Of a DNA stretch of 64,000 nucleotides, positions 2,833 to 55,262 are shown piece by piece (the first letter of the stretch is position 1; the number at the start of each line of letters is the position of its first letter). Both the position numbers and the translations under genes were made by a program. The notes under the pieces are model-generated. The model did no database searches. It saw only the letters and a program-made list of their open reading frames with translations, and was not told where the DNA came from. Source of the stretch: an uncultured bacterium. Its GTDB lineage: Bacteria; Patescibacteriota; Kazan-3B-28. The stretch lies in contig OY968788.1 of assembly GCA_963695435.1 (NCBI GenBank), forward strand, positions 134,330 to 198,329, in the 5' to 3' direction.

Positions 2833-5388
2833 ATGAGTGAACTCATGCCGTTTGGTCCCAGACACGAGATAGATAAGATTCGCCGTCAAATGAAGGCGCG
2901 GTCTTTGGGTAGAAAAGCAAAGAAGAGGGTTTTCACTTTTCTGTCTCGGTATGGCATCAATACTCCGCCAAAGTTGTTTTTGGCGGGGTTTATCGCCGTT
3001 CTTTTTGTATTCAGTTTCACGATGGCGGTGGTTTCAGTTGGACTTCCGAACCCTGCTAGATTGGTAATTTATGCGGCGACTGATTCGACTAAAGTATTCG
3101 ATCGTGACGGTGCCGTACTTTATGACATCTCAAACGGGAAAAACCGCACAACGATTCCTTTTGAGCAAATGCCTGAAGATTTGAAGAATGCAACTATCGC
3201 TATTGAGGATAAAGATTTTTATCATCACAACGGTTTTGATATCAAAGGATTTTTGCGCGGGACAATTTTGAAACCACTTGCGGGGCAAGGTTTTCAGGGT
3301 GGCTCAACAATTACCCAGCAGTTTGTGAAAAATGCGTTGTTAAGTTCGGAGAGAAGTGTCTTACGCAAAGCGCGAGAATTGATTTTGGCATTTGAGTTGG
3401 AAGCGGTTTATTCCAAAGATAAGATTTTGGAATTGTATTTGAATGAGATTCCATACGGCAGCGGGGCATACGGGGCGCAACAGGCGGCTAAAATGTATTT
3501 TGGGAAAGATGCCAAGGATATTAATTTAGCAGAAGCAGCGGTGTTGGCGGCGTTGCCGCAAGCACCGGGGAGATATTCCCCTTACGGACAAAATCCGGAT
3601 TTGCTGATGTTGCGTAAAGATTTGGTTTTGGCGCAGATGGAAAAGCAGGGCTACATCACCAAGGCGGAGGAGGTGGATGCCAAAAAGACGGAAATAAAGT
3701 TTCAACCTCGGAGGGATTCGATTCGCGCTCCTCATTTTGTAATGTATGTAAAAGAATTGTTGGCGGCGAAGTATGGCGAAAAGGTGTTGGAAGAGGGTGG
3801 ACTGCAAATCACCACTACATTAGATATTGATAAACAAAAGGCGGCGGAAGATACAATCGCTAATTTAGCGGAATCCAACAAAACGAAATACAACGCAGGC
3901 AACGCGGCGTTAGTTTCAATCGATCCAAATACGGGAGAGATTTTGGCGATGGTGGGGAGTAAAGATTATTTTGATATGGAGGCGGAAGGAAATGTAAATG
4001 TGGCAATTCGTGAACGGCAACCTGGTTCGTCTATCAAACCGCTTGTTTATGCCACTGCGTTCAAAAAAGATTATGCTCCTGCAACAATGCTGGTGGATGT
4101 GTCCACTGATTTTGGTCAGGGGTATCGGCCACGCAACTATGACGGAGGTTTTCGCGGACCGATTTCTGCTCGGGAGGCGTTGGGCAACTCTATCAACGTT
4201 CCTGCGGTAAAGACATTGGCGTATGCGGGGGTGCAGGACACGATTGATACTGCGCATGATATGGGAATCACTACGCTAAACGGCGGAGCAGACAGATACG
4301 GACTTTCGCTCACATTGGGAGGCGGAGAAGTTACTTTGTTTGATTTGACTCGCGCGTATGGTGTGTTTGCGACGGGCGGAAATCTGACACCGACAATGGC
4401 AGTTTTGAAAGTGACGGACAAATTTGGTCATGTGTTGGAAGAAAACGAACCTGAAAAATCTAAGCAAGTTTTGGATCCGCAGGTGGCGTATTTAATAAAT
4501 AGTATTTTGTCGGATGACAGTGCGCGCGCTCGAGTATTTGGAATGGGCGGGCTACTGACGTTGCCTGGCAGAACAGTTGCGGCGAAGACGGGTACAACAA
4601 ACGATTACAAAGATGGTTGGACAATAGGCTACACTCCTGATTTGGTGACAGGAGTTTGGGCGGGGAATAATCACAACGAAGAAATGACTGCCTCATCAGC
4701 AATGGTGGCGGCGCCAATGTGGAATAGATATATGAAGTTGGCACTGGCTGGTGTACCAAATAAATCTTTCAGCAGACCTGATGGAATTTCGGATGTGATG
4801 GTGGATGCCTTGTCGGGCAAGTTGCCGGTTGAAGGTGTGACGCCAACAACAAAGTCAGAAGTGTTTGCGAGCTGGAGCGTACCGAAAGAAATGGACAATG
4901 TGCATGTGGTGAAAAAAGTAATGAAGAGCGACACCAGCAAATTAGCACCAGCAAATGCACCTGCGGAATTAACTGAAGATAAAGTATTTACTGTAATTCA
5001 TTCGGAACGGCCGAGTAGTTCAAATTGGGAAGGTCCAGTTCTGGCATGGGCGGCGGCAAATGGATATAACAATGTCCCAACGGAAACTTATTCTGGTTCG
5101 ATGGATGGGAGTGCGACGGCGGAAATTACTTTGACGAATCCGATAGAGGGGGCAACGGTTACGGGAGATTTGTTAGTTTCAGCGAGTGTTAGAGCGGGGG
5201 TAGGTGTGAAGAGAGTTGAGTTTTATTATGATAATTCGCTGAAAGGACAGGTGACAGGAGCGCCGTATCAATTTACGATTAAAGCTCCCAAGCAAGACGG
5301 GAAGACACATACCGTTAGGGTTAGATTGCTCAAGGCTGATAATAGTACTGCAGAGGATAGTGTAAGTATTGTTGCTGGTGGAGGATAA
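2833..5388 (+). CDS. class A penicillin-binding protein (transglycosylase + transpeptidase) with a C-terminal Ig-like extension
   Basis: GT51 motifs EDKDFYHHNGFD and GGSTITQQFVKN; transpeptidase SSIKP (SxxK) and KTGTTND (KTG). Confidence 0.9.
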   Translation: MSELMPFGPRHEIDKIRRQMKARSLGRKAKKRVFTFLSRYGINTPPKLFLAGFIAVLFVFSFTMAVVSVGLPNPARLVIYAATDSTKVFDRDGAVLYDISNGKNRTTIPFEQMPEDLKNATIAIEDKDFYHHNGFDIKGFLRGTILKPLAGQGFQGGSTITQQFVKNALLSSERSVLRKARELILAFELEAVYSKDKILELYLNEIPYGSGAYGAQQAAKMYFGKDAKDINLAEAAVLAALPQAPGRYSPYGQNPDLLMLRKDLVLAQMEKQGYITKAEEVDAKKTEIKFQPRRDSIRAPHFVMYVKELLAAKYGEKVLEEGGLQITTTLDIDKQKAAEDTIANLAESNKTKYNAGNAALVSIDPNTGEILAMVGSKDYFDMEAEGNVNVAIRERQPGSSIKPLVYATAFKKDYAPATMLVDVSTDFGQGYRPRNYDGGFRGPISAREALGNSINVPAVKTLAYAGVQDTIDTAHDMGITTLNGGADRYGLSLTLGGGEVTLFDLTRAYGVFATGGNLTPTMAVLKVTDKFGHVLEENEPEKSKQVLDPQVAYLINSILSDDSARARVFGMGGLLTLPGRTVAAKTGTTNDYKDGWTIGYTPDLVTGVWAGNNHNEEMTASSAMVAAPMWNRYMKLALAGVPNKSFSRPDGISDVMVDALSGKLPVEGVTPTTKSEVFASWSVPKEMDNVHVVKKVMKSDTSKLAPANAPAELTEDKVFTVIHSERPSSSNWEGPVLAWAAANGYNNVPTETYSGSMDGSATAEITLTNPIEGATVTGDLLVSASVRAGVGVKRVEFYYDNSLKGQVTGAPYQFTIKAPKQDGKTHTVRVRLLKADNSTAEDSVSIVAGGG

Positions 5389-5419
5389 CGCCGTTTTTTG
5401 TTTTTTATTCTTTTTCTTT

Positions 5420-5535
5420 TTTGTCATTCCAGCGAAGGCTGGAATCTATTTTTATTTAATTGTTTTGAAGCGCCGAATCGCGCTTCAGCGATTGTTACTT
5501 TCCGCTTGAGGAAAGTAACCAAAGTCGCTCGCCAG
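5420..5535. repeat. composite dispersed repeat: family D hairpin followed by family A (two hairpins gaagcgccgaatcgcgcttc and gttactttccgcttgaggaaagtaac)
   Basis: A near-identical ~85-bp copy lies at 43975-44057. Partial copies at 6863-6900 and 36598-36625. Confidence 0.8.
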
Positions 5536-5712
5536 TCGCTTTCACTCTGAATCTCCCAAAATCCTCTCCATCTGCTTATCACCAAACTCGCTACGCTCAG
5601 ACATGGGCACGCTGATTGGAGGGATTTTGGGGATTCAGTACGCTCAAGCTCCAATGGCGGAAATAAAAGAGGATTGATACACTAATGGTGTAATAATTAT
5701 ATTATTGACAAT

Positions 5713-5731: not shown

Positions 5732-6034
5732 ATGAAAATAGAGCTGAAAGTTTTAGAATATGTTGCAGATTTTTTGGATGACTTACCAGTGGAGTTATAC
5801 GCTAGATGTGTAAAGAAGTTGAAGCTTTTTGAAGAATTTGGCTTTTTATTGTCAAAGACTGATCTAAAGAAGATCAATAAAAATATTTGGGAGTTGCGTC
5901 CGGGGGACATCAGAATTCTAATAGGTAAAGCGAAGGGCTGTATGTGGGCATTACACGCATTTCCCAAGACAAGTCAGAAAACGCCTATAAAAGAGATTAA
6001 GTTGGCAGACAAACGTTTAAGAGAATTAAGATGA
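5732..6034 (+). CDS. HigB/RelE-family (Gp49-like) type II toxin
   Basis: IWELRPGDIRILIG...HAFPKTSQKTP matches the Gp49/HigB pattern. Stop overlaps the next start (ATGA). Confidence 0.7.
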   Translation: MKIELKVLEYVADFLDDLPVELYARCVKKLKLFEEFGFLLSKTDLKKINKNIWELRPGDIRILIGKAKGCMWALHAFPKTSQKTPIKEIKLADKRLRELR

Positions 6035-6330
6035 GCAAGAAAAAATTCTACACAGTTAGTGAGATAGAAAAGAGAGCGATGAAGAGTCCGAGTTTTCGTC
6101 GGGCTTACGAAGCATTAGAGCCCGAGTATCAAATTGCTAGGGCGGTAATACAGGCGCGTCACAAAAAGGGGATGACGCAAGGAGAATTGGCTCGAAAGGC
6201 GGGAACTAAGCAACCTGTTATTGCGCGTTTGGAGAGCATGAAGAGCCCTGCTTCTTCCAAGAGTATGGGGCGAATTGCTCATGCACTTGATCTTCGCTGG
6301 GAACTAAAGTTAGTGCCGAAGACCAGATAA
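6031..6330 (+). CDS. HigA-like XRE-family HTH antitoxin
   Basis: GMTQGELARKAGTKQPVIARLE is a Cro/C1 HTH. 4-bp overlap with the upstream toxin gene. Confidence 0.7.
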   Translation: MSKKKFYTVSEIEKRAMKSPSFRRAYEALEPEYQIARAVIQARHKKGMTQGELARKAGTKQPVIARLESMKSPASSKSMGRIAHALDLRWELKLVPKTR

Positions 6331-6726: not shown

Positions 6727-6765
6727 GTTTTAGGGAAAAACCGAGGTGGGAGCCTCGGTTTTTTG
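6727..6765 (+). terminator. rho-independent terminator
   Basis: aaaaccgaggtgggagcctcggtttttt. Confidence 0.75.
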
Positions 6766-6862
6766 TATAGATTTTTTTGTTTTCTTGTCCTCGGGCTTGA
6801 CCCGGGGATCCAAACATTTTTTTATTTAGTTTTTCAAGGGTCTGCGCGACCCTTGTACCGCG

Positions 6863-6900
6863 GTTACTTTCCGCTTGAGGAAAGTAACCAAAGTCGCTTG
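6863..6900. repeat. family A partial copy (gttactttccgcttgaggaaagtaaccaaagtcgct)
   Basis: Identical core hairpin to those at 5497-5535 and 44021-44057. Confidence 0.75.
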
Positions 6901-7098
6901 CCCACGTCGTCGGAACTATCAATTGGCAAAAATCATCTTTCCGCTAATGGTCGAAACTCGGTCGTAGCCACTCCCTCAAACATCTCCCCGCGGCGATGAT
7001 TTTACTCAATTGATTACATTCCTCCTCCTATGGCAGGGGAAGTTGACTGAGGGGAGGATTACTGATATAAGGGATATTATAGTAAACTGAATTAGGAC

Positions 7099-7701: not shown

Positions 7702-8379
7702 GTGGGGTATAATCTAGACATGAGCCAGCTCCCAGCAATACAAATTGTTTCTAAACAGCGAGTCTCTGATCACGGAGAGGTTTTTACATCCGAGAGGGAG
7801 GTAAACGCGATGCTTGATCTCGTAAAGCAGGAAACGGAGCGTATAGACTCACGTTTTCTTGAGCCGGCCTGCGGGACTGGTAACTTTTTAGTCGAGATTT
7901 TAAAAAGAAAGTTAGAAATAGTTAAAGGACGATATTCAAAGAACCAGATCGAATTCGAGCGTTATTCGGTCATCGCAATCTCGAGTATCTATGGAGTGGA
8001 CATCTTAGAGGACAATGTTATTGCATGTCGAGAGAGACTATATTCTGTTTTCGATGAGCACTATAACTCACTTTATACGGATAGGTGTAAAAAGGAATGC
8101 AAAGTAGCCGTCAGATTTATCTTGTCTCGAAATATATTATGGGGTGATGCCTTGACTTTTAAAGAGCCAAACGAAGAGGCTCGGCCAATTATTTTTTCTG
8201 AATGGAGCGCGGTAAACGGCAATCTGATCAAGAGGCGGGATTATACATTGGCTAATCTTCTTGAGAATCGGTCTCCCGAGGAAGGGACTTTGTTCTCTGA
8301 TATGGGGGACCGAGCTTTTGTTCCTAGACCAATTGCAGATTTCCCTTTGACACACTTTTTAGGCCTTGGAGTAGAATGA
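7702..8379 (+). CDS. Eco57I-type N6-adenine DNA methyltransferase N-terminal module (motifs X and I only; truncated paralogue of the next gene)
   Basis: GEVFTSEREVNAMLDL and FLEPACGTGNFLVEIL (motif I), YGVDILE. No NPPY. 4-bp overlap (ATGA) with the next ORF. Confidence 0.6.
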   Translation: MGYNLDMSQLPAIQIVSKQRVSDHGEVFTSEREVNAMLDLVKQETERIDSRFLEPACGTGNFLVEILKRKLEIVKGRYSKNQIEFERYSVIAISSIYGVDILEDNVIACRERLYSVFDEHYNSLYTDRCKKECKVAVRFILSRNILWGDALTFKEPNEEARPIIFSEWSAVNGNLIKRRDYTLANLLENRSPEEGTLFSDMGDRAFVPRPIADFPLTHFLGLGVE

Positions 8380-9875
8380 TGCAGACAAGTTATAACCCAG
8401 ACGTATTATCCTGTCTTGCCAACCTAAGTAATGATGAAGTTTTCACTTCACCAGCACTAGTAAATCAGATTCTAGACCTGCTGCCGAGTGATTTGTGGCA
8501 GAATAAGGGGGCTAAGTTCCTTGACCCGGTTACTAAATCAGGTGTGTTCCTAAGGGAAATTGCCTCTCGTTTAATTGTTGGTCTGGAAAAAGAAATCCCA
8601 GATCTACAAAAACGCATAAACCACATTTATCAAAATCAGCTTTATGGCGTCTCTATCACCGAACTCACCTCGTTTTTATCTCGCCGAAGCGTTTATTGCT
8701 CAAAGACAGCCAAAGGCAAGTACTCAGTTTGTGATAATTTCAAAAATGAACAAGGTAATATCATCTTTGACCGCATAGAGCACGCATGGATGAATGGAAA
8801 ATGTAAGTACTGTAATGCGAGCCAATCACTACACGATAGAGGTGAACTATTAGAAACTCATGCATATCAATTTATTCATACAAATGAACCAAATAAAATA
8901 TTTAATAATATGAAATTTGATGTAATCGTAGGTAATCCACCCTATCAGTTAAATGATGCTGGTGCACAATCTAGCGCAAGCCCGATTTATCATTATTTTG
9001 TCGAGCAGGCTATTAAGCTGAAACCTCAATATCTTTCAATGATTATTCCTGCTCGCTGGTATTCGGGCGGAAAGGGGCTTGATGATTTTAGAAGTAAAAT
9101 GTTGAATGATGAGAGGATCTCTGAAATTCATGATTATCCAGAGACTTCTGATTGTTTTCCGGGATTGAATATTAGAGGTGGTGTTTGTTATTTTCTTTGG
9201 GATAAGGAGCATACCGGTAAGTGTAAAGTGACTACGCATAAATCTGGAACTGTTGGAAAAACAGTTGAACGATCTTTGTTGGAGAAAGGTAGAGATGTGT
9301 TCATTAGATACAATGAGGCAATAAACATTTTACGGAAAGTTCAAGCATCAGATGAAGATTCTTTTTCAAGCTACGTCAGCGTTCGCAAGCCTTTTGGTTT
9401 ATCAACTGACACTAAGGGTAGGCCAGAACATTTTAAAGATAGCGTAAAGCTCTATCAAAATGGTGGGGTTGGGTATATCAAAAGGTCAGAAGTGGCAAAA
9501 AATGCTGGGTGGATAGATAAAACCAAGGTAATAGTTCCATATTCTAGTCCCGGGGACGATTCGTATCCACATTTGATTTTAAGTAAACCGATTATTGCTG
9601 AGACTAACTCATGCAGTACGGAAACCTATTTAGTTGTGGGTCCTTTTGACTCGAAACTTACATGCGAAAACGTAAGCTCTTACCTTAAAACTAGATTTGT
9701 AAGATTCTTAATACTTCTTCTTAAGCCGACTCAGCACGTTACCCAGAAAACATATGGCTTTGTCCCTGTCCAAAATTTTAAAGAAAAATGGACGGATGAA
9801 AAATTGTATAAGAAGTATGGTATCACGCAAGACGAAGTCAAATTTATAGAGTCGCTGATTCGGCCGATGGATTAA
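8376..9875 (+). CDS. Eco57I/Type IIG-III-like N6-adenine DNA methyltransferase
   Basis: DEVFTSPALVNQILDLL, a degenerate motif I FLDPVTKSGVFLREI, YGVSITE, motif IV VIVGNPPYQ. Confidence 0.7.
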   Translation: MMQTSYNPDVLSCLANLSNDEVFTSPALVNQILDLLPSDLWQNKGAKFLDPVTKSGVFLREIASRLIVGLEKEIPDLQKRINHIYQNQLYGVSITELTSFLSRRSVYCSKTAKGKYSVCDNFKNEQGNIIFDRIEHAWMNGKCKYCNASQSLHDRGELLETHAYQFIHTNEPNKIFNNMKFDVIVGNPPYQLNDAGAQSSASPIYHYFVEQAIKLKPQYLSMIIPARWYSGGKGLDDFRSKMLNDERISEIHDYPETSDCFPGLNIRGGVCYFLWDKEHTGKCKVTTHKSGTVGKTVERSLLEKGRDVFIRYNEAINILRKVQASDEDSFSSYVSVRKPFGLSTDTKGRPEHFKDSVKLYQNGGVGYIKRSEVAKNAGWIDKTKVIVPYSSPGDDSYPHLILSKPIIAETNSCSTETYLVVGPFDSKLTCENVSSYLKTRFVRFLILLLKPTQHVTQKTYGFVPVQNFKEKWTDEKLYKKYGITQDEVKFIESLIRPMD

Positions 9876-9880
9876 TTAAA

Positions 9881-12385
9881 ATGAGTAAATTTTTTCCACA
9901 ACGGCCGGAGGCGAACCCAGCAATTTACGCCTACGAAGACACAAACCCACAATACGAGGGTTTATTAAAAGTTGGTTTTACCACTACGGATGCTCGAGCT
10001 CGAGTGGCACAACAATACCCAACACGACGCCCAGGGGTATTACCTTACAAGATAGTTTTTGAAGAATCGGCTATGCGCAATGATGGCACTATTTTAACTG
10101 ACCATGATGTGCATCGTTATTTGCGCAAAAAAGGTATCGCAAACCCCAAAGGAGAATGGTTTAAGTGCAGTATAAAGGAAATCACTGCAGCTGTATTGGC
10201 TATTAAGAGTGGCGTTAAGAACGAAGATGATCGGACTCTTAGTTTTAGCATGCGGCCAGAGCAAGAAGAAGCAGTAGAGAAAACTATTTCGTATTTTAAG
10301 AGCTTTAGTAAAGAGAACAAGGGTAAAACTCCACACTTTCTTTGGAATGCAAAAATGCGTTTTGGGAAAACATTCGCTACATATCAGTTGGCAAAAAAAA
10401 TGGGATGGAAAAAAATACTAGTACTTACATTTAAGCCGGCAGTGCAGAGTGCTTGGGATGAGGATCTTCAAACACACATCGATTTTAAGGGTTGGCAATT
10501 TATTGCACCAAATGGTTTAACATTTGGGAGAGCTAATAAGAAAAATCCTTTTGTGTGCTTTGGTTCATTTCAGGATTATTTGGGGAAAAATACATCAACA
10601 GGCGGGATTAAAACGAAGAATGAATGGGTGCATGCTACCAATTGGGATTGTGTGGTATTTGATGAATATCATTACGGAGCTTGGCGAGAGAATGCAAAGG
10701 ATTTATTTGAAGCAGAGGGGGAAAGAGAGTTGGAATTTGGAGAGGGGGAGGGTATTGAGTATTTTGATGAAGGTGCAATGCCGATCACTACTAACGCGTA
10801 TCTGTATTTGTCTGGTACGCCATTTAGAGCTATTGCGTCTGGTGAGTTTATTGAAGAACAAATTTTCAACTGGACCTATTCGGATGAGCAGCGGGCAAAA
10901 GAGAATTGGAAGGGTGAGCCAAACCCGTATGCTTCTTTGCCAAGAATGGTGATGCTGACTTATCAACTGCCTGATTCTATCCGTGAAGTTGCCATGAAGG
11001 GGGAATTTAATGAGTTTGATTTAAACCTCTTTTTTAGTGCGGAGGGACTAGGAAGGAATGCAAAATTTAAATATGAAGATGAGGTTCAAAAATGGTTGGA
11101 CTTGATTCGAGGCTCTTTTTCCGAAACAACGATAGATAATTTAAAATTGGGGGCAAAAAAACCACCATTACCTTTCTCACACGCACCTTTACTAAATGTT
11201 CTATCACATACATTTTGGTTCTTGCCAAGTGTTGCTTCTTGCTATGCGATGAGAAATTTACTTGAACAAAGGCAAAATAAGTTTTATCACAACTACAAGG
11301 TGATTGTTGCGGCTGGGACTAGCGCGGGAATTGGTGTAGCGGCGCTCCCGCCAGTACAGCAGGCAATGGAAGATCCTCTAAGCTCAAAAACCATAACTCT
11401 ATCTTGTGGCAAACTTACAACAGGGGTGTCGGTCAAGCCATGGACAGGGATTTTTATGCTACGTAATTCGTCAAGTCCTGAAACTTATTTTCAAGCGGCT
11501 TTTCGTGTACAAACGCCTTGGACCGTGAATAACCCTGATAGTAAATCGCCCAATAAAGAAGAGGTTATCAAACAAGAGTGCTATGTTTTTGACTTTGCGC
11601 CGAACCGAGCTCTCAGACAAATTGCCGACTACGGTTGCCGTCTGAATGTAAATGAGTCTAACCCTGAAAAGAAAATTGATGAATTTATCCATTTTTTACC
11701 TGTGCTTGCTTATGACGGTAGTGCCATGAAGCAAATTGATGCGGCAGGTATCTTGGATATGGCAATGAGCGGCACTACCGCCACCTTGCTTGCAAGAAGG
11801 TGGGAAAGTGCGCTACTGGTCAATGTCGATAACAACACCTTGCAGCGTTTGATGAATAACCAAGACGCGATGGATGCCTTAATGAGTATTGAAGGTTTCC
11901 GTAGTTTAAATAAAGACATTGAGACTATTATTAATAAATCGGAAGCTGTACAAAAAATAAAGAAAGAGGCAAACGATAAAGAGTTAACTCCCAAGAAAGA
12001 GAAAGAGTTGAGCAAAGAGGAGAAAGAGTACAAAAGTATAAGAAAACAGATTCAGGAAAAACTTATAAAATTTGCTACTCGCATTCCGGTATTTATGTAT
12101 CTAACTGATTATCGCGAGAGAAGCTTGAAGGATGTTATTACCAAGCTTGAACCAGGTTTATTTAAAAAAGTAACAGGTCTTTCTGTTAAAGATTTTGAAC
12201 TATTGGTTAGCCTTGGTGTTTTTAATAGCGCACTCATGAATGATGCGGTGTATAAGTTTAAGAGATATGAGGACGCAAGTCTAGCGTATACGGGTATTAA
12301 TAAGCATGAGGGTGAGGATATTGGTCTTTATGACACAGTTATCAGTAACAAAGAATATAGGCAGACATTTGAAAATCATGAATAA
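9881..12385 (+). CDS. T5orf172 (GIY-YIG-like) domain fused to an SF2/ResIII-type helicase; candidate restriction (Res-like) subunit
   Basis: N-terminus IYAYEDT..EGLLKVGFTTTDARARV..GEWFKCSIKEI (T5orf172 pattern). Helicase motif I MRFGKTF, motif II VVFDEYHYG, motif III LSGTPFR, motif VI QAAFRVQTP. K/E-rich C-terminus. Confidence 0.7.
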   Translation: MSKFFPQRPEANPAIYAYEDTNPQYEGLLKVGFTTTDARARVAQQYPTRRPGVLPYKIVFEESAMRNDGTILTDHDVHRYLRKKGIANPKGEWFKCSIKEITAAVLAIKSGVKNEDDRTLSFSMRPEQEEAVEKTISYFKSFSKENKGKTPHFLWNAKMRFGKTFATYQLAKKMGWKKILVLTFKPAVQSAWDEDLQTHIDFKGWQFIAPNGLTFGRANKKNPFVCFGSFQDYLGKNTSTGGIKTKNEWVHATNWDCVVFDEYHYGAWRENAKDLFEAEGERELEFGEGEGIEYFDEGAMPITTNAYLYLSGTPFRAIASGEFIEEQIFNWTYSDEQRAKENWKGEPNPYASLPRMVMLTYQLPDSIREVAMKGEFNEFDLNLFFSAEGLGRNAKFKYEDEVQKWLDLIRGSFSETTIDNLKLGAKKPPLPFSHAPLLNVLSHTFWFLPSVASCYAMRNLLEQRQNKFYHNYKVIVAAGTSAGIGVAALPPVQQAMEDPLSSKTITLSCGKLTTGVSVKPWTGIFMLRNSSSPETYFQAAFRVQTPWTVNNPDSKSPNKEEVIKQECYVFDFAPNRALRQIADYGCRLNVNESNPEKKIDEFIHFLPVLAYDGSAMKQIDAAGILDMAMSGTTATLLARRWESALLVNVDNNTLQRLMNNQDAMDALMSIEGFRSLNKDIETIINKSEAVQKIKKEANDKELTPKKEKELSKEEKEYKSIRKQIQEKLIKFATRIPVFMYLTDYRERSLKDVITKLEPGLFKKVTGLSVKDFELLVSLGVFNSALMNDAVYKFKRYEDASLAYTGINKHEGEDIGLYDTVISNKEYRQTFENHE

Positions 12386-14882: not shown

Positions 14883-14936
14883 GGTAGAGGAGCAAGCAAA
14901 AAGGAACTTTTGTTTTTCTATTTGTTTTATCTTTGC

Positions 14937-14975
14937 ACAATTAGCTGAACGGCCGTTCAGCTAATTGTGAGGGTA
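14937..14975. repeat. 35-bp palindromic element caattagctgaacggccgttcagctaattgtg (copy 1)
   Basis: Perfect palindrome ttagctgaacggccgttcagctaa. A second copy lies at 15510-15545. Confidence 0.8.
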
Positions 14976-15045
14976 TTTTTTAAATATTTGTGTGTTTTTT
15001 GATATTTTTCAATATTTTTGAAGTAATTTGGGGGTATGATAAAAG

Positions 15046-15517
15046 GGTGAAGAACAGTCGGGGGGCGTACAGACTGATGAAAGCATTGTTCCGTTTGATG
15101 GACGGCAATGGTGTAGTCCGACTCAATAAACATTGGCAAGAAAAACTTCGCGACCCTCGCCAACATGGCGATGGTCGCTCGTTTAAATATTTGCGTGATG
15201 CGGAATATCTTATTGAGCTGGGGCCGGATAAATATGAAGTGACGGATTTGGCAAAAATTAACTTATTGAAAGAAATTGTTAAGACGCGTAAGAGGGACGG
15301 GAAGTTGAGGCTTGTGATTTTTGATATTCCTGAAAGATTGAAAGCGAATAGAAATTTTTTCCGTCGGCATTTGGTGGATATGGAATTTCAGATGAGACAG
15401 CAAAGTGTATGGGTATCGCCATATCCATGCGAGGACTTAGTTGCTTTGGCTGTGAAATATCACGGTTTGCAGAAATATGTCGAACTAATAGTCGGCAAAG
15501 TAGGCACAATTAGCTAA
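15046..15517 (+). CDS. winged-helix regulator with C-terminal Cas2-like (PaaX-like) domain
   Basis: C-terminal LRLVIFDIPERLKANRNFFRRHLVDMEFQMRQQSVWVS follows the Cas2/PaaX_C pattern (LVxYDI...R..FRR.L...GF...Q.SVW). Start is ambiguous (GTG at 15046 or ATG at 15077). Confidence 0.55.
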
Positions 15518-15545
15518 ACGGCCGTTCAGCTAATTGTGTAGGGGA
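15510..15545. repeat. 35-bp palindromic element copy 2 (overlaps stop codon of the preceding gene)
   Basis: caattagctaaacggccgttcagctaattgtg. Confidence 0.8.
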
Positions 15546-19397: not shown

Positions 19398-19472
19398 GCC
19401 GGAGTAGCTCAACGGTAGAGCAGCACTTTTGTAAAGTGAAGGTTGGGGGTTCGATTCCTCTCTCCGGCTCCA
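19398..19472 (+). tRNA. tRNA-Thr (anticodon TGT)
   Basis: Cloverleaf: acceptor gccggag/ctccggc, D-arm gctcaacggtagagc, anticodon loop tttgtaa, encoded CCA. Close to E. coli tRNA-Thr. Confidence 0.85.
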
Positions 19473-19473
19473 C

Positions 19474-19559
19474 GCCAAGGTACCGAAGCGGTCAAACGGG
19501 GCTGACTGTAAATCAGCTGGCTTACGCCTTCCTAGGTTCGAATCCTAGCCTTGGCACCA
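19474..19559 (+). tRNA. tRNA-Tyr (anticodon GTA), long variable arm
   Basis: Acceptor gccaagg/ccttggc, anticodon loop ctgtaaa, long variable arm, T-arm tagg-ttcgaat-ccta, CCA. Confidence 0.85.
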
Positions 19560-19562
19560 GAT

Positions 19563-19638
19563 GCCGACGTAGCTCAGCTGGTAGAGCACCTCCATGGTAA
19601 GGAGGGGGTCACCGGTTCAATCCCGGTCGTCGGCTCCA
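19563..19638 (+). tRNA. tRNA-Thr (anticodon GGT)
   Basis: Acceptor gccgacg/cgtcggc, D-arm tagctcagctggtagagc, anticodon loop atggtaa, T-arm accgg-ttcaatc-ccggt, CCA. Confidence 0.85.
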
Positions 19639-19800
19639 CGTCGAAATGGCTTCGCCCGACGCGCGAACAAGTAAAACTTGTTCGGCTATTGAGGCTCAGC
19701 ATTTCTCCTTTCAAAATCACAAACAGTCGTTTTACTCCTTGGTTTGCGATTTTGGCTTAGGGGAGGACATAGTTGACAGATAGGGCGACCTATTTCATAA
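19639..19800 (+). repeat. post-tRNA conserved element, family B copy 1 (ends in a ttgaca-17-cataat promoter)
   Basis: cgtcgaaatggcttc...cggctattgaggctcagcatttctcc...ccttggtttgcgattttggctt...ttgaca. The homologous copy lies at 54925-55100. Confidence 0.75.
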
Positions 19801-19802
19801 TG
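19773..19802 (+). promoter_or_regulatory. sigma70-like promoter (ttgaca-17 nt-cataat)
   Basis: Seen directly, upstream of rplK. Confidence 0.6.
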
Positions 19803-19814
19803 CCCCTTGTTATG

Positions 19815-19960
19815 CCCCGTAGAGAAATTTAGAACGCCCTTGGGCTAAAGCTATATTCTCTGCGGAAAAGCATGATTCTGATGAGTTATCGTTAGGGCAG
19901 GTTTATTAGGATAATGCCCAAGGCGAGGAGAGAATATAACTTCTAAATTCTTCTACGGGG
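19815..19960 (+). repeat. MITE-like structured element, family F copy 1, forming the 5-prime leader of rplK
   Basis: ccccgtagagaaatttagaa ... agagaatataacttctaaattcttctacgggg (terminal and internal inverted repeats). The second copy lies at 41303-41450. Confidence 0.75.
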
Positions 19961-19961
19961 T

Positions 19962-20384
19962 ATGGCAAAGAAAGTTAAATCAGTTGTGAAGATCCAGCTC
20001 GAGGCTGGTAAAGCAAATCCCGCCCCTCCGGTGGGTACGGCTTTGGGGCCCCATGGCATTGCGATCATGGATTTTTGCAATCAGTACAACGAAGCGACCA
20101 AGTCGATGATGGGGAATGTAATCCCTGCTGTCGTTACGATTTTTGAAGACCGGTCATTCAACTTTATTTTGAAGCAGCCGCCAGCGGCCGAGCTTATCAA
20201 AAAAGCGCTTGGCATTGAAAAGGGCGCTAAAGTTCCGAACAAAGAAAATGTCGGTACATTGACGAAAGCACAACTTAGAGAAATTGCCGAAAAGAAAATG
20301 CCTGACATGAATGCTAATGATATTGAAGCGGCGATGAAGATTATTGCGGGGACCGCCAAAAACATGGGAGTGAAGATAGAATAA
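19962..20384 (+). CDS. rplK: 50S ribosomal protein L11
   Basis: [20 protein letters not shown]. Confidence 0.95.
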
Positions 20385-20463: not shown

Positions 20464-21282
20464 ATGCTAGAGAAGAAAGTTGTCACTAAAAAAGTGACGA
20501 AGAAGGCGGTTAAGAAACCTAGTGCGGGAGATGAATCCTCCTACGCCAAGGCTACGAAGGACATCGGAGCTAAGAAAAAGATAGCTCCTCGTAAGTTTGG
20601 GCGAGGGAAGAAATATCTCGCTGTTTTGCCGAAGGTAGATAAGGAAAAGTTTTATCCGGCAGATGAGGCGATTAAGTTAGCGCAGGAAACTTCCCCGAGC
20701 AAATTTGATGCAACGATAGAGTTGCATGTTTGTATGGGGTTGGATCCAAAGAAGCCTGAGCAAAATATCCGCGGAACTGTTTCGATGCCAGCCGGAACGG
20801 GCAGAACTAAAAAGATCTTGGTTTTGGCGGAGGAAGCAGATGCAAAGAAAGCATTGAGCGCGGGAGCAGATTACGCTGGTCTTGAAGATATGATTAAGAA
20901 AATCCAAGAAGGTTGGATGGATTTTGATTTGGTAATTGCAACACCAACAGCAATGCCTCAAGTTGGAAAACTTGGGCAGACATTGGGGACCAAAGGTTTG
21001 ATGCCAAATCCAAAATCAGGAACTGTTGCGCCTGATGTCGCGAAGGCAGTTGAAGAATTCAAAAAAGGAAAAGTTGAATTTCGTTTAGACAAAGACGCGA
21101 TTATTCATTTGGGGTTTGGGAAAGTTTCATTTAAGACAGAAGATTTGATGACGAACTTCAAAACGATTGTGAGCGCTATTCAATCGGCGAAACCTGCGGC
21201 GTCTAAAGGGTCTTACATCAAACGGATGTCAGTGGCTTCGACGATGGGGCCGGGGATCAAAATCGATCTTCAATCAATCTAA
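20464..21282 (+). CDS. rplA: 50S ribosomal protein L1 with Lys-rich N-terminal extension
   Basis: ELHVCMGLDPKKPEQNIRGTVSMPAGTG. Confidence 0.92.
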   Translation: MLEKKVVTKKVTKKAVKKPSAGDESSYAKATKDIGAKKKIAPRKFGRGKKYLAVLPKVDKEKFYPADEAIKLAQETSPSKFDATIELHVCMGLDPKKPEQNIRGTVSMPAGTGRTKKILVLAEEADAKKALSAGADYAGLEDMIKKIQEGWMDFDLVIATPTAMPQVGKLGQTLGTKGLMPNPKSGTVAPDVAKAVEEFKKGKVEFRLDKDAIIHLGFGKVSFKTEDLMTNFKTIVSAIQSAKPAASKGSYIKRMSVASTMGPGIKIDLQSI

Positions 21283-21284
21283 AG

Positions 21285-21390
21285 CTCTCGAGAGAAGAAC
21301 GAAGGTATGTTCCTCTCTCGACGCTCGTGGGCAAAGCCCATTTCGACAAGTCGAAACAAGCTCACTGCTCTTACCTCCACCTAAAAGATA
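21285..21390 (+). repeat. ~105-bp structured repeat, family G copy 1 (directly after rplA stop)
   Basis: ctcgagagaagaacgaaggtatgttcctctctcgacgctcgtgggcaaagcccatttcgacaagtcgaaacaagctcactgctcttacctccacctaaaaga. Almost identical to 23564-23668. Confidence 0.85.
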
Positions 21391-21520
21391 GAAAAGGAGA
21401 CCGTCCTGCTGTACAGCGGGGCGGTTTTTGTTTGGTGTATAATTTGGGTAAGGAACGACCGACCGATTTTGTAGGGGGCGGGGTTTCGGTATTGTAACTT
21501 ACAAATGAGGAGGTGAGGGG

Positions 21521-23017: not shown

Positions 23018-23560
23018 ATGGAGAATATTATGGCAGATGAAAATACAATTCCAGAAGAGCAAGCTCCAGAAGCTTCCACCTCCGCTGAAGCTACGGTGGA
23101 CGTTCCGGTAGAAGCTCCAAAGGAAGATAAGAAAGTAGACAGTATGTCTACTGAAGCCTCGGCGAAGGTAGATGCAAGCAAGTTGTCAGGCAATGCCAAA
23201 AAAGTTTTGGACATGGTTAGTGAGATGACAGTGCTTGAGTTGGCTGAGCTCGTGAAAGTATTGGAAGACAAGTTCGGCGTGAGTGCCGCGCCTGTTGCCG
23301 TTGCCGCCGCTGGTGGTGCTGGTGCTGGAGCTGCAGCCGTCGAAGAGAAGAGCGAATACAACATTAACTTGGTTAATGCTGGTGCCAACAAAATCAACGT
23401 GATTAAGGCAGTTCGCGAAGTGACCGAGTTGGGCTTGAAAGAAGCCAAAGACTTAGTCGAAGGCGCACCAAAAATGGTGAAAGAAAATGTAAAGAAGGCG
23501 GACGCAGAAGAGATTAAGAAGAAATTAGAAGCCGCAGGTGCCAAAGTCGAGTTACAATAA
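23018..23560 (+). CDS. rplL: 50S ribosomal protein L7/L12 (with acidic N-terminal extension; true start may be internal)
   Basis: Ala/Gly-rich hinge and [28 protein letters not shown]. Confidence 0.9.
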
Positions 23561-23563
23561 AAT

Positions 23564-23668
23564 ATCTCGAGAGAAGAACGAAGGTATGTTCCTCTCTCGA
23601 CGCTCGTGGGCAAAGCCCATTTCGACAAGTCGAAACAAGCTCACTGCTCTTACCTCCACCTAAAAGAA
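23564..23668 (+). repeat. family G copy 2 (directly after rplL stop), followed by terminator at 23680-23710
   Basis: ~99% identical to 21285-21390. Terminator is gaagccccgccgaaaggcggggcttttt. Confidence 0.85.
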
Positions 23669-23817
23669 AGAATAAAGAAGCCCCGCCGAAAGGCGGGGCT
23701 TTTTGGTCTCTATTTGACCTTGGGGGCAGATGTGCTATCTTGCGGGTGGCGTGTTTTTGGCTCTAGAAGCCAAAAAGCGACTACTAGCTATTTGACATTT
23801 AGAAGGGGGTGATAACA

Positions 23818-36503: not shown

Positions 36504-37138
36504 ATTTTTCTTTTTCTTTATTCTTTTTTGTCATTCTGAACTTATTTCAGAATCTTTTTATTTATTTTTTCCAGCACTCACGCCGTGCTGATGGTGGCGG
36601 TTACTTTTCTAGAAAAGTAACACAAAAGTTCCCGCCAGTCGTCGGGATTGTTCGCCCCTGCCTACCGGTAGGCAGGTAACAAAATTAGCTTTCTTCGCTA
36701 TCGGCAAACTCCCCCGATAGCCATCGGGGTCAAACATGCCTTCGCCTGCGCTAATTTTGTCGGCTCAATACATCCCTCCTCCAATGGCGGACTAAAGAAA
36801 GGATGGGGGATAAAAAACAGTCCTGCACTTGGGGCAGGACTGCTTGGTTCGGGTGGAGATGAGCTACAACCGTATCTGGCGAAAGGCGCGGTGGTACTTT
36901 TCCGAACCAACGGACAAAGGTGCGGCTGTTTTTTGCGATGGGAGGAGTTGGAAATTATTTTTTCCAGAAGTCCAGTGTCGGGTGTGTGAATATCAAGGGG
37001 GGATGAGGGGTAGACCGAGTATCCCTAGCAGGAGGGCTGGTCTACATTGAAGCCGACATTGGAATATCTCCGCACCTAATCGCAAAAATGTGCCGCAATG
37101 AATTGTAGCACTTATCTGATAGTAGGCAATAGAGGGTC
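36504..37138. other. 635-bp non-coding region dense in palindromes/hairpins (candidate structured ncRNA or repeat cluster)
   Basis: No ORF above 75 aa. Hairpins gtcattctgaa..ttcagaatc, gttacttttctagaaaagtaac, cctgcctaccggtaggcagg, cagtcctgcacttggggcaggactg. Confidence 0.4.
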
Positions 37139-41251: not shown

Positions 41252-41302
41252 ACCGTTGCCAAGCCCGTTCCATAGGATAGAATAGGGACAGGTTTCAGCA
41301 TG

Positions 41303-41450
41303 CCCCGTAGAGAAATTTAGAACGTCTTGGGCGTAGATTATATTCTCTGATGGGGAAATACAACCACAACTGGTTTGTAATGCTATAGTTGAAGGTTCAT
41401 ACATGTCCAAGCCGAGTGAGAGAATATAATTTCTAAATTCTTCTACGGGG
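41303..41450 (+). repeat. family F copy 2, forming the leader of ftsA
   Basis: ccccgtagagaaatttagaacgtcttgggcgtagattatattctct...gagagaatataatttctaaattcttctacgggg. The last g is the first base of the GTG start at 41450. Confidence 0.75.
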
Positions 41451-42670
41451 TGAAAGAGAAAATTGCTGTTGGTATAGACATCGGCGATTCTAAAGTGGTG
41501 ACAGTAATTGGTCACCGTGCCGAAGGTGAAATACACCCCAGTGTTGTGGGAGTGAGTATTCATGAAGGTTCAGGAATGCGGCGTGGTGTGGTGACGGACG
41601 TAGAAGAAGCAGTATCAGCAATTGCAAGTTCGATTGAAGAAGCGGAACGAATGGCGGGATTGCCTGCAGAAGCGGTTTACATCTCACTTGTGGGTGACCA
41701 CATCAATGCAACTAATAATAAAGGATTGGTGACGATTGCGCGGGGTAGAGAAGAAATTACTTACGAAGATGTTGTGCGGGTAAGAGAAGTGGCGCAGTCA
41801 GTGCCAATGTCGGTCAATCGGGAAATTTTGCATGTTATTTCCAAAACCTACACGGTGGACGGGCAGGACGGTATCAAGGACCCGGTGGGGATGTCGGGGG
41901 TGAGGTTGGAGGTGGATGCTCATGTGATTACTGGTTCAACTCCTTTTATCAAGAATATTAGGAAGACGGCAGAGCAGGCGGGGGTGGCAGTTGCTGGTTT
42001 TGTTTTAGGTCCATTGGCCGCCGCTAAGGCGGTACTTTCAAAAAAGCAGAAAGAACTGGGAGTGGCGCTGATCGATATTGGCGCAAGTACAACCGGGATG
42101 GTGGTTTTTGAAGAGGGTGGGATTTATCATTCGGCAGTGCTTCCCATTGGTTCCGATCATTTGACTCATGATATTGCGATTGGTTTGAGAGTTTCGTTAG
42201 ACACGGCGGAGAAAATAAAATTGGAATACGGTGTGGCTAGCCCGGTTATGTTATCGGACAAAGACACAATTGATTTATCTAAAATTGATAAAGATGAAGA
42301 ACAGATAATTTCGCGCAGATATGTTGCCGATATTATTGAAGCAAGATTGGCGGAATTATTTTTGATGATAAAGTCGGAGTTACGGAAAGTCGGTCGCGAC
42401 GGCGTATTACCAGCCGGAGCGGTGTTGGTGGGCGGAGGAGCGAAGTTGGCCGGGATTGTTGAATCAGCCAAAAGTCACCTCGGTCTTCCCACACAACTGG
42501 GTTTTCCAGTCGAATTGAAGGGGATGGTTGACAAACTAGATGACCCCCGGTTCGCGACCGCCATCGGATGCATGCTGTGGGGTATGGATGAGGACAGTAG
42601 CCAGAGCAATTTCCCAACTTTGGATTTTGCGGCGATCGTCTCTCGGATAAAAAACATCTTCACCAAATAA
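41450..42670 (+). CDS. ftsA: cell division protein FtsA
   Basis: Actin-like fold motifs VGIDIGDSKV, LIDIGASTTGMVVFE. Confidence 0.88.
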   Translation: MKEKIAVGIDIGDSKVVTVIGHRAEGEIHPSVVGVSIHEGSGMRRGVVTDVEEAVSAIASSIEEAERMAGLPAEAVYISLVGDHINATNNKGLVTIARGREEITYEDVVRVREVAQSVPMSVNREILHVISKTYTVDGQDGIKDPVGMSGVRLEVDAHVITGSTPFIKNIRKTAEQAGVAVAGFVLGPLAAAKAVLSKKQKELGVALIDIGASTTGMVVFEEGGIYHSAVLPIGSDHLTHDIAIGLRVSLDTAEKIKLEYGVASPVMLSDKDTIDLSKIDKDEEQIISRRYVADIIEARLAELFLMIKSELRKVGRDGVLPAGAVLVGGGAKLAGIVESAKSHLGLPTQLGFPVELKGMVDKLDDPRFATAIGCMLWGMDEDSSQSNFPTLDFAAIVSRIKNIFTK

Positions 42671-43940: not shown

Positions 43941-43975
43941 GCGAGAGACGACCGCTAATTGGCGGTCGTTTTCTT
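43941..43975 (+). terminator. rho-independent terminator
   Basis: gagacgaccgctaattggcggtcgttttcttttt. Confidence 0.7.
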
Positions 43976-44057
43976 TTTATTTAATTGTTTTGAAGCGCCG
44001 AATCGCGCTTCAGCGATTGTTACTTTCCGCTTGAGGAAAGTAACCAAAGTCGCTCCC
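43975..44057. repeat. family A copy 2 (two-hairpin element)
   Basis: tttatttaattgttttgaagcgccgaatcgcgcttcagcgattgttactttccgcttgaggaaagtaaccaaagtcgct is near-identical to 5452-5535. Confidence 0.85.
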
Positions 44058-44250
44058 CACTCACAAATTGCTATCCAAAATAGAAAATCAGACCTTTCTG
44101 GACTATACGCTATACTCGCTACGCTCAAACAACGCTATCCATACCGGCTGATTTTCTAATTGGATAACGCAATTTGCTCGATGGGGTTGGGACAAAGGAG
44201 AAAGCCCGGCGCGGAGACGCAGGGCTTTGAGGAATGCAGGTTTGGGCATG

Positions 44251-54847: not shown

Positions 54848-54924
54848 GGGCTTGTAGCTCAGTTGGTTAGAGCGTTCGGTTCACATCCGAAAGGTCACTG
54901 GTTCGAGTCCAGTCAGGCCCACCA
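54848..54924 (+). tRNA. tRNA-Val (anticodon CAC)
   Basis: Acceptor gggcttg/caggccc, D-arm gctcagttggttagagc, anticodon loop ttcacat, T-arm actgg-ttcgagt-ccagt, CCA. Confidence 0.85.
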
Positions 54925-55100
54925 CGTCGTCGAAATGGCTTCACGCTACGCACGAGCTCGACAAGTTTGCTCGGCTATTGGCGTTCAGCATTTCTCCTCT
55001 CCCCAAAATGTTCGCTACGCTGGAACATTTCGGGGACCCCATTTTAGGGCTCCTTGGTTTGCGATTTTGGCTTTGGGACTGGGGAAGGTTGACTTATGGG
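54925..55100 (+). repeat. post-tRNA conserved element, family B copy 2 (ends in ttgact-17-taagat promoter-like region)
   Basis: cgtcgaaatggcttc...cggctattggcgttcagcatttctcct...ccttggtttgcgattttggctt...gttgac parallels 19639-19800. Confidence 0.75.
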
Positions 55101-55262
55101 GGAGAGTCGGATAAGATGCCGACTGTATATTAACGCACCCCGCCATTTTTACTTATCGGTAAAACGACAGAGTAAAATCGTCCACTCCTGCTGATTACTA
55201 GATAATTAGCTCAGGACGAAACACTAAAATGGCGAGGGGAGGTATAAAAAGGAGAATTAGGT

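Follow-up and report, generated by a model that had tools for sequence, protein, structure and literature searches.

A modular, CGTC-tagged palindromic element behind tRNA genes of a Patescibacteria genome, probably of the REP/BIME-like kind

The CGTC-tagged superfamily of repetitive extragenic palindromes (REPs), which includes RPE-4 and RPE-6 of Rickettsia and dRS3 of Neisseria, carries as its tag an unpaired terminal CGTC (or TGTC/CCTC) directly beside a stem (Di Nocera, De Gregorio & Rocco 2013, PMC3733652). Its classical units are 20-40 bp long, with an 8-9-bp stem that starts with two A-T pairs, a loop of 4-5 nt and an unpaired CCA tail opposite the tag, and they occur in tens to hundreds of copies, often as head-to-head dimers (PMC3733652). 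In Proteobacteria, REPs, bacterial interspersed mosaic elements (BIMEs) and REPINs are mobilized by RAYT tyrosine transposases (PMC2817692, PMC3116915). Here we describe a non-coding element of 130-165 nt in a genome of the candidate phyla radiation (CPR; Patescibacteria). It has two copies, A and B, each behind a tRNA gene, in a 64-kb stretch of contig OY968788.1 from an uncultured bacterium of the lineage Kazan-3B-28; this whole stretch is called the window. On balance, we take the element for a lineage-specific, modular, palindromic insert of the REP/BIME-like kind, tagged with CGTC and probably transcribed as a tRNA trailer.

The original prediction that the two regions are homologous non-coding DNA rather than genes was borne out. 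Self-BLAST of the window matched 19607-19785 to 54893-55101 (E 1e-14), the two copies align with 77% column identity, and neither region has a coding signal. They have in common four exact blocks of 15, 10, 14 and 24 nt (CGTCGAAATGGCTTC, TCGGCTATTG, TCAGCATTTCTCCT and the 24-mer CTCCTTGGTTTGCGATTTTGGCTT), each of which occurs exactly twice in the window, with about none expected from shuffles. The peptide PWFAILA is, as had been proposed, the mere translation of the identical 24-mer and not a sign of coding. Both copies had been placed directly at the CCA end of the preceding tRNA. This is correct for copy A, which opens with CGTCGAAATGGCTTC right after CCA, and incorrect for copy B, where CGT comes before CGTCGAAATGGCTTC and the shared start lies 3 nt later. 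Besides these three additional 5' bases, copy B has an insert of ~25-35 nt.

Four tRNA genes lie in the window (ARAGORN and Rfam release 15), in two clusters: Thr(TGT)-Tyr-Thr(GGT) at 19398-19638 and Val(CAC) at 54848-54924. Both tRNA loci carry the element, as opposed to none of the ~38 other spacers of the window (2/2 versus 0/~38; Fisher p 0.0013). No further copy was detected in the window, even by a covariance model run without filters, and a census of 8-mers over the intergenic spacers gave no high-copy common word. Upstream regions of ribosomal protein (r-protein) genes have the element in two of five cases within the window, and those of rplJ, rpsU and rplU do not. The search for copies covered the window and the orthologous loci fetched from relatives. 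The features of the two loci are listed below.

19563-19638, + strand: tRNA-Thr(GGT), last gene of the Thr(TGT)-Tyr-Thr(GGT) cluster, CCA encoded (ARAGORN; Rfam 66 bits)
19639-19772, + strand: copy A, beginning at the base after the tRNA-Thr(GGT) CCA
19639-19642, + strand: CGTC tag of copy A, unpaired, directly 5' of the hairpin
19643-19705, + strand: domain 1 of copy A, rod hairpin (minimum free energy -26.5 kcal/mol, z-score -3.7; 89.7 bits with covariance model R1, see below)
19702-19712, + strand: CU-rich linker of copy A, TTCTCCTTTC (alignments and folds)
19712-19758, + strand: domain 2 hairpin of copy A, CAAAATCACAAAC ... GTTTGCGATTTTG (fold z -3.15)
19735-19758, + strand: 24-nt block of copy A, which holds the 3' strand of domain 2 and is identical in copy B
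19759-19772, + strand: G-rich 3' end of copy A, AGGGGAGG, partner of the CU-rich linker, and the 5 nt up to the -35 hexamer
19773-19801, + strand: rplK promoter TTGACA-17-CATAAT (scan, 11/12 matches), outside the element
54848-54924, + strand: tRNA-Val(CAC), CCA encoded (ARAGORN; Rfam 72 bits)
54925-55088, + strand: copy B, which follows the tRNA-Val(CAC) CCA
54925-54931, + strand: start of copy B, CGT and then the CGTC tag (sequence)
54932-54994, + strand: domain 1 of copy B, rod hairpin (minimum free energy -24.5 kcal/mol, z -2.6; R1 90.7 bits)
54991-55003, + strand: CU-rich linker of copy B, TTTCTCCTCTCCC (sequence, fold)
55001-55049, + strand: extra hairpins of copy B, CCCCAAAATGTTC-GCTACGCTG-GAACATTTCGGGG and CCCCATTTTAGGG (fold), shared with relative L066 and not with copy A
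55050-55088, + strand: 24-nt block of copy B (55050-55073), then its G-rich 3' end TTGGGACTGGGGAAGG; 93% identity to the orthologous spacer of relative L079
55089-55117, + strand: rpsB promoter TTGACT-17-TAAGAT (scan), outside the element

Both promoters were found where they had been predicted, with 1-6 nt between the end of the element and the sigma-70-type -35 hexamer in either copy. Promoter and terminator scans gave no promoter-like or terminator-like site between tRNA and element at either locus, and no intrinsic terminator (a G+C-rich stem followed by a T run) within copy A or B. Because the element lies on the tRNA strand with neither signal in between, it would be transcribed as the 3' trailer of the tRNA.

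Orthologous loci of relatives (L066-L083 and L272) were fetched through homologues of proteins L11 and S2. At the Thr/rplK locus, a homologous element stands flush to the CCA of tRNA-Thr(GGT) in L066-68 (L11 98% identical) and in L075 (89%). The same place is taken by a different 102-nt trailer in L069 (L11 87%). In L071-74 (87%) the promoter follows 3 nt behind the tRNA, L071 reading CCA, 3 nt and TTGACG, and L083 (85%) has CCA, 11 nt and TTGACG with no element. At the Val/rpsB locus, the element is present in L272 (S2 87%), whose contig begins inside it; the 84-nt spacer of L079 (86%) holds the 3' block alone, and L080 (83%) and L081 (84%) have CCA, 8 nt and TTGACT with no element. L081 and L083 represent one genome, which is empty at both loci. 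Homologues of the two window copies therefore exist in relatives, in L066-68, L075, L272 and, partly, L079.

Another copy, at 3922-4053 of L069, occupies the spacer between clpP and holB. It is weaker by model R1 (E 0.2) and visually convincing: it starts with CCCACGTCGTCGAAAC, with the CGTCGTC of copy B, and ends with GACGTTTCTCCTCC; a 14-mer is common to it and copy B (chance expectation 0.0013), and it folds into a rod of 126 nt (z -5.2). Thus, association with tRNA genes is not obligatory, and it could have arisen because a compact genome offers few places that tolerate an insertion. The tRNA trailer or processing signal proposed earlier, if taken as universal, disagrees with this copy and with the lack of the element behind the same tRNAs in near relatives. 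The left flank of every copy is CCA (CCCA, TCCA or ACCA followed by CGTC), including the CCCA of the non-tRNA copy.

The promoters behave independently of the element. The rplK promoter is identical in L066 even though L066 does not have the 24-nt block, and the rpsB promoter is conserved in L079, L080, L081 and L272. In L075, the element is ~1.3 kb away from rplK, with an extra gene between them and no adjacent rplK promoter. Since promoters persist without the element (L080, L081, L083 and L071) and the L075 element persists without the rplK promoter, the element is not part of the promoters. By these alignments, it is an insertion into an ancestrally tiny spacer (8-11 nt) between the tRNA gene and the next promoter, confined to a subclade and dispensable for both neighboring promoters.

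The main feature of the element, absent from the original description, is a conserved rod hairpin. The first 65-90 nt of A, B, L066 and L075 each fold independently into the same rod (z -2.0 to -3.7), with an unpaired CGTC (CGUC) tag on its 5' side in these four copies and in the L069 copy at 3922. The basal helix P1 of copy A, GAAATG[G]CT/AGCATTTC (as RNA, GAAAUG[G]CU/AGCAUUUC), is identical in copy B, reads GGAAUA[A]GU/GCUAUUCC in L075 and has AC/GU as inner pairs in L066. A 2x2 internal loop separates it from P2, which is different in each copy yet paired throughout (GCCCGA/UUG-GGC, ACGCUA/UGGCGU, GAC/GUC and AACU/GGUU); as DNA, P2 is GCCCGA/TTG[A]GGC in copy A and, compensated relative to A, ACGCTA/TGGCGT in copy B. 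Past P2 comes a conserved junction, (U)ACGC...GCUWUU (ACGC...GCTATT in copy A). The tip helix P3, CGAACAAGT/ACTTGTTCG in copy A and CGAGC/GCTCG with loop TCGACAAGTTT in copy B, has a wholly different sequence and length in the four copies, and its pairing is always kept.

A covariance model, R1, was built from the rods of A, B, L066 and L075 and gave 76-91 bits on these four source sequences. In the alignment fitted to it, 83.2% of the cells assigned to pairs were paired, as opposed to 64.5% in column shuffles, none of which (0/500) reached the observed value, and 16 of 21 pairs were altered on both sides. When the partner was slid by 1-3 columns as a control, pairing fell to 35-54%. Helix P1 alone was 97.5% paired, with five of its eight pairs compensated. 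Three of the sequences in this alignment are orthologous to one another.

Several other features of the rod were considered. After the tip, L075 has GCTTTTGG and L066 has GCTTTTAG, whose terminator-like appearance is suggestive only. A pseudoknot of the CGUCG tail with CGACG of the tip loop could form in L075 and B but is inconsistent across copies. Coding on the minus strand, where GAAAGGAGAAATG resembles a ribosome-binding site with ATG, was rejected because L075 has no ATG, the peptide of L066 shows no relation, and the bases of GAAAGGAGAAATG belong to the compensated 3' strand of P1. Also dropped was a boxB-boxA antitermination signal (tip hairpin, then GCTWTTG), the match to the familiar boxA being ~6/10 and the site lying upstream of the operon promoter.

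Past the rod, the CU-rich linker (UUUCUCCUYU) is the best conserved unpaired stretch among all copies and resembles the anti-Shine-Dalgarno sequence. In A, L075, L272, L079 and the centroid structure of B, it pairs with the G-rich run before the -35 hexamer. The two partners change in a lineage-specific manner (CCAAUCUCC/GGGGGAUUGG in L079, UAUUCCU/AGGGAAUA in L075), and the helix of copy A contains G-U pairs. Between linker and G-rich run, copy A has the hairpin CAAAAUCACAAAC/GUUUGCGAUUUUG. The 3' strand of this domain 2 hairpin varies in L075 and L272 without compensation, so that its pairing is weakened, and the hairpin is much less well supported than the rod. The 24-nt block has the form TTGGTTTGCGATTTTGGCTT in both window copies and TTAGTTCRYAATTTTGGYTA in L075 (Thr locus) and L272 (Val locus). 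The variant thus follows the genome and not the locus.

Different parts of the element have different closest relatives. The 5' half of copy A is nearest to B (78%) and its 3' half to L075 (87%). The middle of copy B (B 36-119, with the two extra hairpins) is nearest to L066 (76%, BLAST), and its 3' end is nearest to L079 (93%). L066 and copy A differ in tip helix and module content despite nearly identical flanking genes. Such a mosaic pattern is typical of repeats subject to homogenization or exchange by recombination.

Searches for known families and marks of mobility were negative. Only the four tRNAs reached the Rfam gathering score, and E-value mode gave nothing credible, hence no family match, inside the element. 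The exact 18-mer CTTGGTTTGCGATTTTGG had 19 matches in genome contigs and 46 in metagenome contigs, all by chance and none accompanied by another block; it was a poorly chosen query, as the relatives carry a different variant of the block. Exact-word scans of viral contigs likewise returned chance matches alone. The ends of the element, CGTCGAAATGG and ...GGCTTAGGGGAGG, do not form an inverted repeat, unlike those of a miniature inverted-repeat transposable element (MITE), no tRNA 3' fragment precedes the promoters, and the neighboring genes are housekeeping genes. Resemblance to an integron attC fold, in its conserved ends, bulged base, central spacer and variable tip, is architectural only, with no RYYYAAC/GTTRRRY cores, integrase or cassette array. 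TIGR arrays, IS110 bridge RNA, retron non-coding RNA and group II intron domains were dismissed, there being no partner gene and no tandem array.

The element resembles CGTC-tagged REPs (PMC3733652) in the unpaired CGTC at the foot of a palindromic stem, in its extragenic position downstream of genes, where it is probably transcribed, and in having no dedicated transposase known. As in that superfamily, sub-variants arise by complementary changes of the stem, and units join other hairpins into mosaics. Unlike the classical units, P1 has 6+2 bp with G-C as its first pair, and the rod is 65-125 nt long, with bulges, internal loops and a hypervariable tip. The tail opposite the tag is TCC(T), and CCA lies on the tag side (the tRNA CCA in four copies, CCCA in L069). 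There are two copies per 64 kb, and no head-to-head dimers were seen in the window. Given the misfit in stem length, loop, tail, unit size and apparent copy number, we regard the element as a REP-like new variant and not as a member of the superfamily. With REPs, BIMEs and REPINs it has in common intergenic mosaics of palindromic units and linker motifs, homogenization within a genome, presence/absence differences between strains, and the proposed roles in the stability or termination of transcript 3' ends. It differs from the REP/REPIN-RAYT systems in having no GTAG tag at the foot and no RAYT gene among the ~40 window proteins or at the fetched loci. It also has no inverted REP doublet, a low copy number, far longer units and, as its host, a 0.56-Mb CPR genome.

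We favor, by a modest measure of confidence, the REP/BIME-like insert. Its first unit is the long imperfect palindrome of 65-125 nt with the unpaired CGTC at its 5' foot, followed by the CU-rich linker; in the second, the hairpins are more variable, and the linker and the G-rich 3' end pair to close the region. The element behaves like that class in being extragenic and modular, exchanged or homogenized between loci of one genome and gained and lost between close relatives, with its hairpin kept by compensatory substitutions. The rod, 4-7 nt after CCA, may act in the RNA as a 3'-end structure that shapes 3'-end processing. Possible roles are as a barrier or pause site for read-through into the r-protein operon or, alternatively, as a stop or entry site for a nuclease. 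The repeat reading is further supported by several other structured intergenic families of 2-4 copies in the window, some of which share short motifs with the element.

A number of observations weigh against this interpretation. Two copies in 64 kb, and six loci overall across relatives, are few next to classical REPs of 20-40 bp with >100 copies. A Pfam scan of the ~40 window proteins gave no transposase (Y1/RAYT included) or integrase, no Y1 transposase was found at the fetched loci of relatives, and comparison of filled with empty sites gave no target-site duplication and no definable terminal inverted repeats; mobility of the element is therefore unproven. Enrichment at tRNA loci (2/2 versus 0/~38) could point to a function tied to tRNAs and not to a passive insert. 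Domain 2 folds no better than shuffles in L272 (z +1.3) and L066 (z +0.7), and the covariation alignment has few sequences, four full and two partial or weak. Neither folding energy nor G-U/A-C counts call the strand: both strands fold equally well, and the counts of G-U against A-C (6 to 3) are only weakly asymmetric.

A structured trailer or small RNA, also raised in the original prediction, stays a live option, and we hold it possible, if doubtful, that the element is a functional small RNA or cis-acting RNA. The tRNA promoter would then drive the RNA, and tRNA 3' processing would free its 5' end. The two hairpins would flank an exposed CU-rich, anti-Shine-Dalgarno-like seed, UUUCUCCUYU, which would base-pair with target mRNAs at their ribosome-binding sites or, in cis, sequester the G-rich 3' segment. 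The flush junction with CCA in A, B, L066 and L075, the presence of the element at both tRNA loci of the window, the conservation of the unpaired linker next to a compensated hairpin and the G-U pairs in the linker helix of copy A all agree with such an RNA. A 24-nt block identical within a genome and different in orthologues fits co-evolution with a trans partner. Trailer-derived regulatory RNAs exist in E. coli: 3'ETS-leuZ is ~50 nt long, ends in a terminator and is conserved at a single locus. The present element resembles it in lying directly 3' of the last tRNA of a cluster, where it would be co-transcribed and could act as RNA, and differs in being 130-165 nt long, having no terminator, being duplicated at unrelated tRNAs and being absent from close relatives. 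That absence, behind the same tRNAs in organisms with 83-87% identical r-proteins, counts against a small RNA, as do the L069 copy away from any tRNA, the want of a terminator to define the 3' end in our scans, and the weak strand asymmetry. Module content also varies greatly, L066 having no 24-nt block and B and L066 having extra hairpins. Rather unlikely, in our estimate, is a dedicated RNA module added by this CPR subclade to the 3' ends of tRNA units or, in a related version, a mobile element that targets the CCA of tRNA genes. Here, a two-hairpin trailer RNA with an exposed anti-Shine-Dalgarno-like seed would have copies kept alike by a common trans partner (a nuclease, a protein, or the ribosome or ribosome-binding sites of mRNAs), and would link transcription of the tRNA with expression of the r-protein operon beginning a few bases further downstream.

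The remaining explanations concern DNA. MITEs and the palindrome-associated transposable elements (PATEs) derived from IS200/IS605 are likewise small non-coding inserts that fold strongly and whose sites are filled in some relatives and empty in others; PATEs, besides having no inverted ends or target duplications, always abut a short target motif. A non-autonomous element of the latter type, inserted as a single strand 3' of a CCA target, would have subterminal hairpins and neither inverted ends nor target duplication, which is how our copies look: hairpins lie near both ends, CCA precedes every copy, L069 included, and all copies are on the same strand. The element is unlike a MITE in lacking terminal inverted repeats and target-site duplication, and unlike a PATE in that no parent insertion sequence or Y1 transposase was identified in the window or the fetched loci. 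Its right end is undefinable, the short ancestral spacer alone forces any insertion next to CCA, and independent loci number only three, so we think a PATE-like origin improbable. We put still less weight on the earlier suggestion of a relic of integrative elements that target tRNA 3' ends, by which the sequence after CCA would be leftover attL-side DNA with the rest deleted. The junction lies exactly at the 3' end of two different tRNAs, and the clade has a rearrangement hot spot around tRNA-Thr (split tRNA in L071, anticodon-loop insertion in L083). However, the far end has no duplicate of a tRNA 3' fragment, no integrase or element gene is nearby, viral contigs gave chance matches, and the same sequence stands behind two unrelated tRNAs and in a non-tRNA spacer; compensatory maintenance of a hairpin is unexpected in decaying DNA. 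Least credible of all, and very hard to sustain, is upstream regulatory DNA (an UP element or transcription-factor site) common to r-protein operon promoters, again an early proposal. It would account for both copies ending just before an r-protein operon -35 hexamer, for the T-rich 24-nt block at about -38 to -15 relative to that hexamer, and for the conservation of block and promoter between B and L079. Orthologous promoters nevertheless do without the element (L080, L081, L083 and L071), as the L066 rplK promoter does without the block; the L075 element is not beside an rplK promoter, the L069 copy precedes holB, rplJ, rpsU and rplU of the window have none, and covariation points to a hairpin, not to a duplex binding site. 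We therefore reject the promoter-upstream and relic readings, on the independence of promoter and element, the absence of tRNA 3' duplication and integrase, and the maintained hairpin.

Other repeats in the window also sit between genes. Family F1 (5393-5603, 6758-6960, 36507-36641 and 43974-44131) forms multi-hairpin intergenic arrays after terminators, each with a long hairpin closed by CCAAAAT...ATTTTGG and holding TCGCTACGCTCA; an equivalent array precedes the L069 copy at 3922-4053. The loop motif CGCTACGC lies inside hairpins at 5589, 44117, 54944 and 55013 and is also present in the L069 trailer. Family F3 (19812-19976 and 41300-41464), with a repeat of ~150 nt at 19812-19961 and 41300-41451 and also at about 6700-6850 of L071, has 20-nt inverted ends, CCCCGTAGAGAAATTTAGAA...TTCTAAATTCTTCTACGGGG, with nested inner stems, and sits exactly at the start codons of rplK and an FtsA gene (ATG|CCCC...GGGGT|ATG or GTG). 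L066, a close relative, reads cataatgccccttgttATGgcaaag, with no insert; F3 insertion is thus precise and recreates a start codon. F3 has no Rfam match and could be MITE-like or a shared 5' leader. Family F4 (21258-21430 and 23542-23705) contains a 113-nt module, 97% identical between 21283-21393 and 23562-23672, directly after the rplA and rplL stops and before a canonical terminator in each case. The module holds the palindrome TTTCGACAAGTCGAAA and the minus-strand 10-mer GTCGAAATGG, both common to the element described here; GTCGAAATGG and TCGACAAGT of the element are also present in F4. Near-identical perfect palindromes of 34-35 nt (GCACAATTAGCTGAACGGCCGTTCAGCTAATTGTG, at 14935-14969 and 15504-15538) flank a gene with a PaaX/Cas2-like domain (14990-15517).

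Rearrangements were seen around the tRNA genes. In L083 (2140-2402), tRNA-Thr(GGT) is apparently interrupted in the anticodon loop, after ...ccatggtaa, by ~215 nt and resumes with gaaggagggggtcaccggttc...ggctcca; ARAGORN made no call, and no Rfam intron family reached the gathering score. An insert of ~180 nt, itself holding a second, complete tRNA-Thr(TGT), splits a tRNA-Thr(TGT)-like gene (gccggagtagctc ... gaaggttgggggttcgattcctctctccggctcca) in L071 (6390-6650) and likewise in L072-L074; LAGLIDADG and GIY-YIG endonuclease genes lie just upstream. In L066 (2570-2640), upstream of the tRNA cluster, a 5' fragment of tRNA-Thr (gccgacgtagctcag) is joined to a GC-rich hairpin (ccccgaaggggccccgttgggg), and the tRNA-Thr(TGT) allele differs from that of the window despite nearly identical flanking coding DNA. 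The cluster looks like a recombination hot spot. Downstream of copy B, the rpsB 5' leader (55118-55262) has a long-range helix, CCCCGCCATTTT/AAAATGGCGAGGGG. L079, L080, L081 and L272 have in common another, unrelated leader (ACACTCGACATAAACAAATCCTCG...), and divergence sets in right after TGTATATTAA, downstream of the conserved promoter. The window also has a Gp49-like/HTH_3 toxin-antitoxin pair (5732-6330) and a restriction-modification-like block (7702-12385) of an MmeI/Eco57I methylase, then T5orf172 and a ResIII helicase. These are probably defense genes in an otherwise housekeeping region.

Genomes of CPR bacteria are tiny and tightly packed, so that repeated structured non-coding inserts are unexpected, and they have hardly been described there. 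The window contains at least four such families, located at gene boundaries: behind tRNAs, at start codons, in 3' untranslated regions and behind terminators. The element behind the tRNAs keeps its fold by compensatory evolution while it appears to be swapped between loci and lost in near relatives. The finding is solid, if modest: a real feature and a new family, of repeats or of RNA structures, limited to a small subclade of the CPR. If transcribed, such elements would offer a handle on tRNA 3'-end formation and on the separation of tRNA read-through from r-protein promoters in uncultured organisms; if mobile, they would add a further phylum, and a far longer type of unit, to what is known of REP-like elements.

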